The translations under genes and the position numbers were made by a program. Shown piece after piece: positions 13,133 to 16,542 of a stretch of DNA of 21,685 bases. A model generated the notes under the pieces. That model saw only the letters and a program-made list of their open reading frames with translations. It had not been told where the DNA came from and ran no database searches. The stretch's first letter is position 1. Each line of letters begins with the position of its first letter. The DNA is from Nautiliaceae bacterium (GTDB lineage Bacteria > Campylobacterota > Campylobacteria > Campylobacterales > Nautiliaceae): the NCBI GenBank assembly GCA_039831155.1, contig JBDONT010000025.1:1-21685 (forward strand). Direction: 5' to 3'.

Positions 13133-14965
13133 TTACATAAAGTAAACCACCGGCACAATTGTAGGATATTTTTTCGTTTTTCTAAATACGTGTTTTCTTA
13201 TAACGTTTCTTAATTCGTTTTCAAAAATTCTGTTTTTCTCATACACATAATCTTTGGCGTGATTGATATAATTAATTAAAATATCTTCCATCTCTTTTGC
13301 AAAATTTTTATCTTCTTTATCAGCAATAATTCCATAAGTTGTCACACGAGGGCGTGAGATAAGTTTTTTATTTTGTTTATCCACTTGGGCAACTATCATA
13401 ATAATACCCTCATTCGCCAATTTTTGTCTATCTACTACAATATCGTTTTCTATTTTTTCATTAATTTGATTGTCAATATAAATTTTTCCTACTTTTACAG
13501 ATTTAACTTTTCTAACTCTCTTTGGAGTAATTTCCCACTGTTCTCCGTCTTCCATAACAAATATATTCTTTTCATACATCCCGATACTCATAGCTGTCTC
13601 TTTATGCTTTACAAGATGATTATATTCTCCGTGTACCGGAAAGAAATATTTAGGTTTTACAAGACGAAGCATAAGTTTTTGTTCTTCTTGAGCCGCATGT
13701 CCTGATACGTGAATTTCACTAAAATCTTGATAAGCTACTTTTGCACCTTTTTTCATTAAAAAGTTTATAAGTTGAGAAACTGTCGGTTCGTTTCCAGGAA
13801 TGGCTTTTGCAGAAATAATAATCTGGTCACCCTCTTTAATTTTTACGTGTCTGTGCTCATCAATCGCCATTCTATATAAAGCACTCATACTCTCACCCTG
13901 ACTTCCCGTAGTAATAATTAAAATTTCATGGTCTTGATATTTTCCTATTTCATAAGGGTCTATAAAAATGTCTCTTGGAAGTTTAATATACCCTAAATCC
14001 ATTGCTACATTTAGGTTTTGTTCCATACTTCTACCGATTATACAAACTTTTCTACCGTATTTAATACCTCTTTCTATTGCTTGATATACTCTATGAATAT
14101 TAGAAGAGAATGTAGACATAATAACCCTGCCTGTAGCTTTTAGGAAAAGGTCATCAAATGTTTTTCCCACTACACTCTCACTCGGAGTCACTCCCTGTTT
14201 ATATGAGTTTGTAGAATCACTAAAAAGTGCTAAAACCCCTTTTTCCCCATAATAAGCAAATCTATGTAAATCCGGTGCATATCCGTCAATAGGTGTATGG
14301 TCGATTTTGAAATCACCCGTATGAATAATAGTACCAACTGGTGTTTGAATAGCAAGCGATGAGCTGTCAATAATTGAGTGAGTCATATGAATCCACTCTA
14401 TTTTAAAATCCCCAATTTGAATAGGAGTTCTCTTTTTAACACTTCTAAAATAACTTTTATACTGCAAAAGCTTATGTTCTTTAAATTTGTTTTCTATCAT
14501 CGCAAGAGGAAGAGAAGTTCCGTAAATCGGAAATTGCATCTCTTTAAACAAATAAGGCACGGCTCCTATATGGTCTTCGTGTCCGTGAGTAATAATAAGA
14601 CCTTTTATTTTATGACGAATTTCTCTTAAATAACTAAAATCCGGAATTAAAATATCAACTCCGTGCATATCTTCATTAGGAAAACTCATCCCGCAATCTA
14701 TAATAACGGCATTGTTTTCAGTTTCAAGTACCGCACAGTTCCCACCAATTTCATCAAGTCCTCCAAGAGGGGTAAATCTAACCCATCCTTTTGCATTATT
14801 ATCTATTTTTGTGTGCGAATTGAGTCTCGCTTGTTGTATTTTTTCATTTTCATTAAAAGCCTTGTTTAAATCTTTAAACCAAACAAAATTTTTAGGGTCA
14901 ACTTTTTTTTGAACGATTTTTCTTGAAGATTTATTAAACACGGCTTTTTGATTTTTTTCTTCCAT
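13133..14965 (-). CDS. rnj: Ribonuclease J
   Basis: PLGGLDEIGGN, THGHEDHIG, HTGDFKID, DSTN, STFSSN, TGSQGE, HVSGHA, PVHGE. Confidence 0.97.
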   Translation of the reverse strand: MEEKNQKAVFNKSSRKIVQKKVDPKNFVWFKDLNKAFNENEKIQQARLNSHTKIDNNAKGWVRFTPLGGLDEIGGNCAVLETENNAVIIDCGMSFPNEDMHGVDILIPDFSYLREIRHKIKGLIITHGHEDHIGAVPYLFKEMQFPIYGTSLPLAMIENKFKEHKLLQYKSYFRSVKKRTPIQIGDFKIEWIHMTHSIIDSSSLAIQTPVGTIIHTGDFKIDHTPIDGYAPDLHRFAYYGEKGVLALFSDSTNSYKQGVTPSESVVGKTFDDLFLKATGRVIMSTFSSNIHRVYQAIERGIKYGRKVCIIGRSMEQNLNVAMDLGYIKLPRDIFIDPYEIGKYQDHEILIITTGSQGESMSALYRMAIDEHRHVKIKEGDQIIISAKAIPGNEPTVSQLINFLMKKGAKVAYQDFSEIHVSGHAAQEEQKLMLRLVKPKYFFPVHGEYNHLVKHKETAMSIGMYEKNIFVMEDGEQWEITPKRVRKVKSVKVGKIYIDNQINEKIENDIVVDRQKLANEGIIMIVAQVDKQNKKLISRPRVTTYGIIADKEDKNFAKEMEDILINYINHAKDYVYEKNRIFENELRNVIRKHVFRKTKKYPTIVPVVYFM

Positions 14966-14987
14966 TTTTAACTCCTTTCTTTAAAGC

Positions 14988-15722
14988 CTAGCGCACTTTA
15001 GAAAAGAGCCGGAAAAAAGTAGAGCCGTCTACTTGATGAGGTCTTATATTTTTGGCAAGGTCAAAATCTTCGGGATTAAAATTTTTATATTTTACGGATA
15101 AATTTTTCTTTAAAGTTTTTCTAGGATTTGCAAACGCAATTTTTAAAAATTTTGCAAAATCCTCATCATATGAATCTTTAAACTTTTCAAATAAAATTAC
15201 ACTGCTTGTAACCTTAGGAGCCGGTACAAAAGCTCCGGGAGGTATATCAAACAGCTTTTTAACATTAGCCATACTATTAGCTAAAATAGCTAAAGAGGAG
15301 TAGTTTTTATCTCCAACTTTAGCTGAAAATTTATCCGCAACCTCTTTTTGTATTAAAACAAGTATGTTTTTTGCATTTTTATCTTTTAAAGCTTTTAAAA
15401 TTATATTCGTTGCAATATAATAAGGTAAATTTGCAATTAAATCATACTTCTCATCCACTAAGCTGTCTTGCCAAATTTCTAAAACATCATCACATATCAA
15501 ATCTAAATTTGGAAATTTTTCTTTTAAAATTTCACAAAGGTCAGTATCAATTTCTACTGCTTTTACTCTTCTTTTTTCCAGCAGCTTTTCCGTTAAATCG
15601 CCTAAGCCAGGTCCAATTTCTACTACCAAATTATTGGTGTTGGGCATCGCTTCGACGATTTTTTCTAAATAGTGTTTATCTTTTAAGAAGTTTTGTCCGA
15701 ATTTTTTCTTTGCCTTGATTAT
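14988..15722 (-). CDS. rsmA: 16S rRNA m6,2A dimethyltransferase RsmA/KsgA; probably starts at ATA 15722 (~244 aa), not ATG 15647
   Basis: VEIGPGLG, ANLPYYI, QKEVA, AFVPAPKVTS. The frame stays open upstream of 15647 and encodes the conserved N-terminus (I)IKAKKKFGQNFLKD; there is no in-frame ATG/GTG/TTG before a TAG at 15788-15786. Confidence 0.9.
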   Translation of the reverse strand: MIKAKKKFGQNFLKDKHYLEKIVEAMPNTNNLVVEIGPGLGDLTEKLLEKRRVKAVEIDTDLCEILKEKFPNLDLICDDVLEIWQDSLVDEKYDLIANLPYYIATNIILKALKDKNAKNILVLIQKEVADKFSAKVGDKNYSSLAILANSMANVKKLFDIPPGAFVPAPKVTSSVILFEKFKDSYDEDFAKFLKIAFANPRKTLKKNLSVKYKNFNPEDFDLAKNIRPHQVDGSTFFRLFSKVR

Positions 15723-15751
15723 ATCATATCCTTTTTTTAATGTAAATAGTT

Positions 15752-15767
15752 TGATAAAATTATAACA
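15752..15767. promoter_or_regulatory. Overlapping divergent extended -10 promoters: hisF (TGATAAAAT, plus, 15752-15760) and rsmA (TGTTATAAT, minus, 15767-15759)
   Basis: Two TGnTAwAAT motifs on opposite strands in the short rsmA-hisF spacer. Confidence 0.5.
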
Positions 15768-15780
15768 AAAAAGGCTTTTA

Positions 15781-16542
15781 ATGGACTATTTTGCAAAGCG
15801 TATTATCCCTTGTCTTGATGTAAAAGACGGGAGAGTGGTTAAAGGAGTAAATTTTATCGGGTTAAGAGATGCCGGAGACCCGGTAGAAGCTGCCGTGCGT
15901 TATAATGAAGAAGGAGCAGATGAACTGACTTTTTTAGATATTACAGCAAGTTATGAAGGAAGAAAACCTATAGTTGATATCATCAAAGAAGTAGCCCGTG
16001 AAGTATTTATTCCCTTAACCGTCGGAGGAGGAATAAGCGAGCTTAGCGATATTTATGATTTATTAAACGTAGGATGTGATAAAGTTTCAATCAATTCGGC
16101 TGCAGTTAAAAAACCTAATTTTATAAACGAATCTTCTAAAAGATTTGGAAGTCAATGTATTGTAGTTGCAATTGACGTTAAAAAAGTAGCTTCTAATAAA
16201 TGGAATGTCTTTATAAAAGGTGGACGCGAAGATACCGGACTTGATGCAATCGAGTGGGCAAAAGAAGTAGTAGACAGAGGTGCCGGCGAAATTCTTTTAA
16301 CTTCAATGAATACAGACGGCACAAAAGCCGGGTTTGATATAGAAATTACAGAAAAAATATCTTCACTTGTAAACGTACCGGTAATCGCAAGTGGAGGAGC
16401 CGGGAAAATAGAACATTTCAAAGAAGTATTCGAACACAAAGCAGACGCAGCACTTGCCGCTAGTATTTTTCATTTTAGAGAAATTGATATTATGGATTTG
16501 AAAAACTATCTAAAAGAAAATTCTATAAGCGTGAGGATATAA
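15781..16542 (+). CDS. hisF: Imidazole glycerol phosphate synthase cyclase subunit
   Basis: [60 protein letters not shown]. Confidence 0.98.

Follow-up and report, generated by a model that had tools for sequence, protein, structure and literature searches.

We propose, with a probability of roughly two in three, that rsmA (ksgA), the gene for a universal enzyme of ribosome maturation, is translated from an AUA start codon in this genome and in 5 of the 6 sampled genera of the Nautiliaceae, a family of bacteria from hydrothermal vents. The window, by which we mean the whole 21,685-nt stretch of DNA that was analyzed, carries the gene on its minus strand and belongs to an incomplete assembly (1.53 Mb in 43 contigs, 32% G+C), the nearest named proteins being those of Nautilia profundicola, Caminibacter, and Lebetimonas. 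The ATA in front of rsmA is real and conserved, and it is unusual for this gene, although the kind of feature is already known. Actual initiation at AUA, and a low level of expression, are what we infer from the sequence.

The rsmA gene and the bases around its start

The rsmA frame, which runs open from 15785 to its stop at 14988, contains no ATG, GTG, or TTG upstream of 15647. The first in-frame canonical codon is thus the ATG at 15647-15645 (residue 26), which is where the gene caller placed the start, and the claim of the earlier note that rsmA lacks a canonical start is borne out. The note had also held that this placement leaves out a conserved N-terminus, and indeed I-I-K-A-K-K-K-F-G-Q-N-F-L is encoded in frame upstream of 15647 and is missing from the gene caller's product; FGQNFL is kept only if translation starts upstream of that position. 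Read from the ATA at 15722-15720, the coding sequence (14988-15722, minus strand) specifies 244 amino acids followed by a TAG stop. This product scores 222.8 bits against the equivalog profile TIGR00755 (ksgA; cut-off, 171); its residues 2-241 align with positions 1-254 of the 256 in that profile, and it matches Pfam RrnaAD over residues 3-216 (E = 7.4e-44). The product of the ATG at 15647 aligns with TIGR00755 only from position 29, having lost positions 1-28 and FGQNFL with them. KKKFGQNFL, EIGPGLGDLT, and ANLPYY are all present in the rsmA translation; FGQNFL, the SAM motif GPGxGxLT, and NLPY we take to be motifs of RsmA/KsgA, the 16S rRNA (A1518/A1519) dimethyltransferase. With the equivalog cut-off passed over the full length and the motifs in place, the predicted product is that of RsmA/KsgA.

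Downstream and in the same orientation is rnj, the gene for RNase J (13133-14965, minus strand; TIGR00649, 650.9 bits), and the divergent neighbor is hisF (15781-16542, plus strand; TIGR00735, 375.8 bits), used below as a spacer control. A comparison of the window around 14966-14990 with loci L003-L022 shows that in the genus of this genome a gap of 22 nt parts rsmA from rnj, which has a GGAG of its own; in most other genera, a basic C-terminal extension of rsmA runs into the rnj coding sequence, so that the two genes overlap. The RNase J of the window carries about 60 lysine-rich residues before the start of the TIGR00649 profile.

Around the proposed start, the minus strand reads AAAAAAAGGA-TATGAT-ATA-ATC-AAG-GCA. 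The Shine-Dalgarno sequence AAGGA occupies 15733-15729 and is invariant in the 23 loci that were compared; its AGGA ends at 15729, and 6 nt later comes the ATA at 15722-15720, just as the earlier note had it and as can be read directly from the minus strand. The ATC that follows (15719-15717) is either the second codon or an alternative start. The sole ATG (15727-15725) stands 1 nt past AGGA, is out of frame, and is stopped after two codons, the resulting mini-ORF being ATG ATA TAA (15727-15719), the stop of which overlaps both ATA and ATC. The same bases spell a perfect extended -10 element, TGATATAAT, at 15726-15718, overlapping the start codon. This candidate promoter, called P2 here, has a -35-like TTTACA (15746-15741) 17 nt upstream of its -10, and the pair gives 11 of 12 hexamer matches plus the TG. 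Mini-ORF and -10 element had both been pointed out before, and both are confirmed by direct reading, as is everything else that the earlier note states of the sequence.

Existing annotation reflects the difficulty of the locus. Public N-termini come in four versions: MKAKKK, from the ATC; MIKAKKK, from the ATA; MPNT..., from residue 26; and upstream-extended. The first, or its variant MRAKKK, is found in RefSeq for Nautilia profundicola, Caminibacter pacificus, C. mediatlanticus, and Lebetimonas; the second is found in some NCBI records; the third is found in many metagenome gene calls, which are 25 residues short and have lost FGQNFL. A non-canonical start for rsmA has, in other words, been silently accepted by an annotation pipeline, and among these conflicting annotations it is spacing and collinearity, taken up below, that argue for ATA.

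Conservation of the start region and the choice between ATA and ATC

The family-wide 15-mer and the block of invariant bases around the start are, by the counts that follow, more than chance. The pattern GGATATGnTATAATC is present in exactly one copy in 26 of 30 Nautiliaceae genomes, including all 15 of high quality (at least 90% complete), and only n varies, taking all four bases (A in 10 genomes, C in 9, G in 4, and T in 3). The 15-mer GGATATGNTATAATC, too, has a single copy in 26 of the 30 family genomes, and a reversed control pattern had 0 matches. The earlier note had suggested looking for recurrent ATA or ATC starts among relatives, and the ATA is common to these 26 genomes. The 4 genomes without the motif are one that is 88% complete and has no rsmA match (G005), one that is 69% complete (G045), and the two of genus g6, where rsmA has an ATG or TTG start. 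Over the 23 loci, the stretch 15734-15716 differs at just one of its 19 consecutive positions, the other 18 being invariant, and the bases farther upstream vary freely, whereas in codons 3-70 only 18 of 68 third positions are invariant. By itself, TGNTATAAT is unremarkable in a genome of 32% G+C, with 280 copies on both strands. In 20 metagenome contigs chosen via the downstream coding sequence only, the 15-mer was found in 19, and TG, TATAAT, ATA, and ATC were kept in all 20; one contig (L149) has TTG in place of the mini-ORF ATG.

A sequencing indel or a frameshifted allele, which the earlier note had kept in view, is ruled out by this family-wide conservation, the bases being identical in 26 genomes and 19 of 20 metagenome contigs, and the whole class of such readings, from an assembly indel to a programmed frameshift out of the ATG, has next to no credence with us. 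The prfB frameshift site is laid out as a Shine-Dalgarno sequence, a short spacer, a codon, and a stop, and the arrangement here is superficially similar, but a ribosome that began at the ATG would have to shift by -1 or +2 to enter the rsmA frame, and its P-site tRNA could re-pair only where N is A. Since N takes all four bases, re-pairing is not available in all members of the family. Two DNA runs (X3 and X4, examined as contigs) span the motif with no listed difference: depth was present in 30 of 30 bins, and between 15640 and 15830 no other letters were seen except an extra A behind 15736 in one contig of each run. These contigs give weak support to an unchanged motif. The run of A residues before the Shine-Dalgarno sequence (15732-15738) also varies in length among relatives. 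As to RNA, contigs (Logan; X1 and X2, from one sample) match exactly from 15200 to 15591/15592 and then end, inside rsmA; that of X2 runs into adapter letters, and the end may be that of a fragment or a processing site. None of the contigs extends over 15593-15772.

An in-frame canonical start upstream is lacking in 19 of the 23 family loci, and AAA-GGA-TAT-GNT-ATA-ATC is immediately preceded by a stop in 8 of the 23, leaving only ATA or ATC as possible starts in those loci. Past the ATC, codon changes are synonymous or conservative (AAG/AAA/AGG/AGA and GCA/GCG/GCT/GCC), and the frame between ATA and Met26 is, by this pattern, evolving as coding sequence.

The best candidate for the rsmA start is then the ATA, which we place well ahead of the ATC, both being non-canonical, because of Shine-Dalgarno spacing, outgroup collinearity, and TIGR00755 coverage. 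For spacing, AGGA sites were counted within 25 nt upstream of first canonical starts, giving 722 sites from 1382 long ORFs, with spacers of 6 nt at 244 sites, 5 nt at 201, 9 nt at 21, and 1 nt at 6. The 6 nt before ATA is the mode of the genome, the 9 nt before ATC is in the tail, and the 1 nt before the mini-ORF ATG is at background level. For collinearity, outgroup loci (L028, L048, L059, and L102-L104) have a TTG or ATG one codon before I/V-K-A-K-K, precisely where the ATA stands, and 83 of 84 loci outside the clade have a canonical rsmA start. For coverage, position 1 of the TIGR00755 profile aligns to residue 2 of the ATA product.

All three points bear against the reading in which the ATC at 15719-15717, and not the ATA, is the start codon, and we regard it as unlikely. 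In its favor, four RefSeq proteins (P0002, P0007, P0011, and P0015) begin MKAKKK or MRAKKK, the N-terminus that would follow from an ATC start, Met-Lys, is a common one, and the ATC is invariant down to its third base, a C in all 23 loci although ATT and ATA would be synonymous. Two NCBI records (P0009 and P0012), on the other hand, begin MIKAKKK, as the ATA predicts. An unusual AUA-reading tRNA was also considered and rejected, there being no UAU anticodon, and three CAU, among the 35 tRNAs that ARAGORN finds in this incomplete assembly.

Candidate promoters and a second signal on the start bases

The likely promoter of rsmA is P1, an extended -10 (TGTTATAAT) at 15767-15759 that matches the genome's own promoter logo, ttTGnTAtAATt, and whose flanks, by their score, rank at the 52nd percentile of promoter-like sites; the transcription start itself is a prediction. 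As TGnTATAAT, P1 is found in 20 of 23 loci, 27 to 39 nt before the ATA. Genomic -10 elements mostly end 15 to 29 nt before a start codon (81 of 135 sites), so the 36 nt from P1 to ATA puts it in the upper tail here; in genus g5 the distance is 27 nt, and in that genus, with its shorter leader, the TTTACA is absent. In Campylobacter jejuni, a dRNA-seq study places the -10 motif, gnTAnaAT, 4 to 8 nt before the transcription start, with no -35 element, and gives aAGGa as the ribosome binding site and 30.6 nt as the mean length of the 5′ UTR (PMC3847290). P1 fits this sigma-70 pattern. The leader would be close to unstructured, with a computed fold of -0.3 kcal/mol (z, +1.43; 192 of 200 shuffles fold at least as well) and, from RNAalifold on 23 sequences, a value of -1.0 and no consensus structure. 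A mimic of helix 45 and a riboswitch were accordingly rejected as candidates, since the leader has no stable fold.

By the definition of leaderless genes in the same study, a -10 box followed by an ATG at 5 to 9 nt (PMC3847290), rsmA in the window does not qualify, no ATG lying 5 to 9 nt past P1 or P2. The window differs in this from many outgroup rsmA genes, which fit a -10-N6-10-ATG arrangement. In Sulfurimonas-like and Arcobacteraceae loci (L042, L044, L046, L108, L117-L141, and others), the rsmA ATG is 6 to 10 nt past TAnAAT or TATACT and no Shine-Dalgarno sequence precedes it, a layout that suggests a leaderless or near-leaderless rsmA mRNA. Sulfurospirillum-like loci have rsmA with a Shine-Dalgarno sequence and TTG.

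The bases between the Shine-Dalgarno sequence and the ATA pose a separate question. Of the six positions of this spacer, TATGnT, five are invariant, while the corresponding hisF spacer takes 14 different sequences, in two lengths, in 16 of the same genomes. The rsmA spacer is thus far more conserved than the hisF spacer, which implies a constraint besides ribosome binding, and whatever else acts on TATGnT could be the primary mechanism. Two candidates for this overlapping second signal are a genuine internal promoter (TGnTATAAT) and the mini-ORF ATG-NTA-TAA. When a genome is rich in A+T, nine bases can hold a -10 box, a start codon, and a mini-ORF at once, and which of them selection acts on cannot be told from conservation alone.

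P2 may be such an internal promoter, its core being perfect and invariant and its one free base being the very one that the consensus leaves free. The flanks score within the promoter range, ranking at the 37th percentile among promoter-like sites and at the 90th among matches within coding sequence, but two of the flanking bases are minority bases in the genome logo (the A before TG, 25%; the C after the hexamer, 4%). In the metagenome variant, the TTG brings the sequence closer to the promoter consensus. A transcript made from P2 would begin near 15711 and so would not contain the rsmA start. A further reading is that the element is mainly a promoter for rnj or for a 5′-truncated transcript, that ATA and mini-ORF are by-products, and that the protein starts elsewhere, for example at Met26. 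Beyond the P2 core and its flank score, the invariance of the bases around the ATG at 15647, two four-fold degenerate sites included, would favor this. We nevertheless consider it very improbable, as a Met26 product would lose FGQNFL and 28 profile positions, the codons from ATA to Met26 evolve as coding, 15647 has no Shine-Dalgarno sequence before it, and the 70 nt from P2 to 15647, the next ATG, compares poorly with the 15 to 29 nt that prevails at 81 of 135 genomic sites. The invariance around the internal ATG is an observation in its own right: GCG ATG CCC AA (within 15650-15636) is identical in 23 loci, four-fold sites included, whereas over codons 3-70 only 3 of 8 four-fold degenerate sites are invariant.

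The mini-ORF supplies the other account of the second signal. On this account, ATG-NTA-TAA is translated and ribosomes re-initiate after the UAA, on AUA (AUAA) or AUC (UAAUC), so that rsmA is coupled to the mini-ORF. The classical overlaps of translational coupling are AUGA and UAAUG, which the stop/start overlaps here mimic, and the ATG and TAA of the mini-ORF are invariant in 26 genomes. Moreover, the A of that ATG is the minority base (25%) in the genome promoter logo, and its invariance is therefore something the promoter reading does not explain. Against coupling, an ATG 1 nt from AGGA is found at only 6 of 722 sites, all of the mini-ORF bases are also explained by a -10 element together with the ATA and ATC codons, and in L149 the ATG is replaced by a TTG, toward the promoter consensus. 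On these grounds we hold the coupling of rsmA to the mini-ORF to be quite improbable.

Proposed non-AUG initiation and ribosome maturation

Returning to initiation at the ATA, the steps we envisage are as follows. Transcription from P1 (15767-15759) would produce an mRNA whose leader is about 30 nt long, rich in A and U, and unstructured; on this mRNA the AAGGA would set the AUA at 15722-15720 in the P site at the commonest spacing in the genome. The AUA would be read by the initiator tRNA with a third-position mismatch, initiation would be inefficient for that reason, and RsmA, as a maturation factor of the 30S subunit needed in sub-stoichiometric amounts, would be held low. A weak AUA start thus probably keeps RsmA scarce. 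The second conserved signal, TATGnTATAAT, would on the same bases most likely serve as an internal sigma-70 promoter into rsmA-rnj.

A non-AUG start that is fixed in a family on a ribosome biogenesis factor is a natural candidate for control based on the start codon. The earlier note proposed just such control, in which under-methylated or immature 30S subunits tolerate AUA, so that a shortage of RsmA raises rsmA translation and sufficiency lowers it. In E. coli GFP reporters with AUG, CUG, AUA, and AGG starts, loss of KsgA raised the error index for near- and non-cognate initiation, and ksgA complementation restored start-codon discrimination (PMC6868393). This phenotype of increased near- and non-cognate initiation, as given there, supplies the physiological link that feedback needs, although that work deals with GFP reporters, the start codon of ksgA itself not being its subject (PMC6868393). 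The loop is plausible from these E. coli data, and the ksgA mutant results mean that a simple reporter experiment would be informative. The ATA has also been conserved for long across the family, and one unrelated Halarcobacter genome has a Shine-Dalgarno sequence and ATA on rsmA. Yet the data are explained equally well if a weak codon does no more than hold RsmA at a low level; ATT or CTG seems to serve as the start of at least 4 further genes in the genome, which means that non-AUG starts are not specific to rsmA; and the Halarcobacter ATA is that of one genome as against ATG in its sampled kin. Feedback by KsgA on the AUA start is, on balance, a possible but doubtful reading. We are no less tentative about the fuller scheme, in which the AUA start acts as a read-out of 30S maturity in a homeostatic loop and TATGnTATAAT, whether as an internal promoter or as a decoy AUG mini-ORF, would contribute further control over the number of transcripts or ribosomes that use AUA. 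Autogenous translational control of E. coli ksgA was reportedly described in 1989; our literature search on autogenous ksgA regulation found nothing relevant, and the search for a non-AUG start of rsmA/ksgA found no paper describing one.

Near-cognate starts of this kind have precedents elsewhere. For infC, ccpN, and citZ of Staphylococcus aureus, AUA starts were shown by Ribo-Ret, with about 10% of the output of an AUG reporter (PMC13009471). The likeness to these and to E. coli infC (AUU) is in a conserved near-cognate start with a good Shine-Dalgarno sequence, on genes that are translation-related or regulatory and yield less than AUG would (PMC13009471). The differences are that the gene here is rsmA, with a start predicted from sequence, and that a perfect extended -10 and a two-codon ORF lie over this start, an overlap not described for infC, ccpN, or citZ in the text consulted (PMC13009471). 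The infC of this genome starts with ATG, so the clade is without the classical infC arrangement.

The Halarcobacter case merits a separate word. A Halarcobacter ebronensis MAG (L106; L112, 1480-1510) reads TAGGAG-N6-ATA-GTT-AAA-GCA with no canonical rsmA start, and in 29 sampled kin of this MAG rsmA has ATG. The ATA may have arisen there independently or be an artifact of assembly, and a single genome was judged too little to establish independent recurrence.

Within the present genome, a good Shine-Dalgarno sequence precedes 853 ATG, 120 TTG, and 72 GTG starts. A strict screen for other starts (AGGA, a spacer of 5 to 7 nt, then ATA, ATT, ATC, or CTG, with at least 8 codons before the first canonical start) returned 10 sites in 8 genes. 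The ATA of rsmA is the only convincing ATA start that this screen of the sequence brings up. Besides rsmA, a Pfam domain begins before the first canonical start in 4 genes, less clearly so in truA. Three of them combine a well-spaced AGGA with a Pfam domain upstream of the first canonical start: flhA (contig C20, 247415-249610), with CTG, and the genes for a MoxR ATPase (C20, 109939-110781) and a small kinase-like protein (C20, 62368-62913), each with ATT. In truA (C20, 20880-21596), a well-spaced AGGA precedes an ATT that is confined to about two genera, whereas the rsmA ATA is family-wide; truA was accordingly rejected as a spacer comparator, having too few sequences. A ComF-like protein (contig C2, 66184-66738) likewise has an ATT as its apparent start, behind a well-spaced AGGA.
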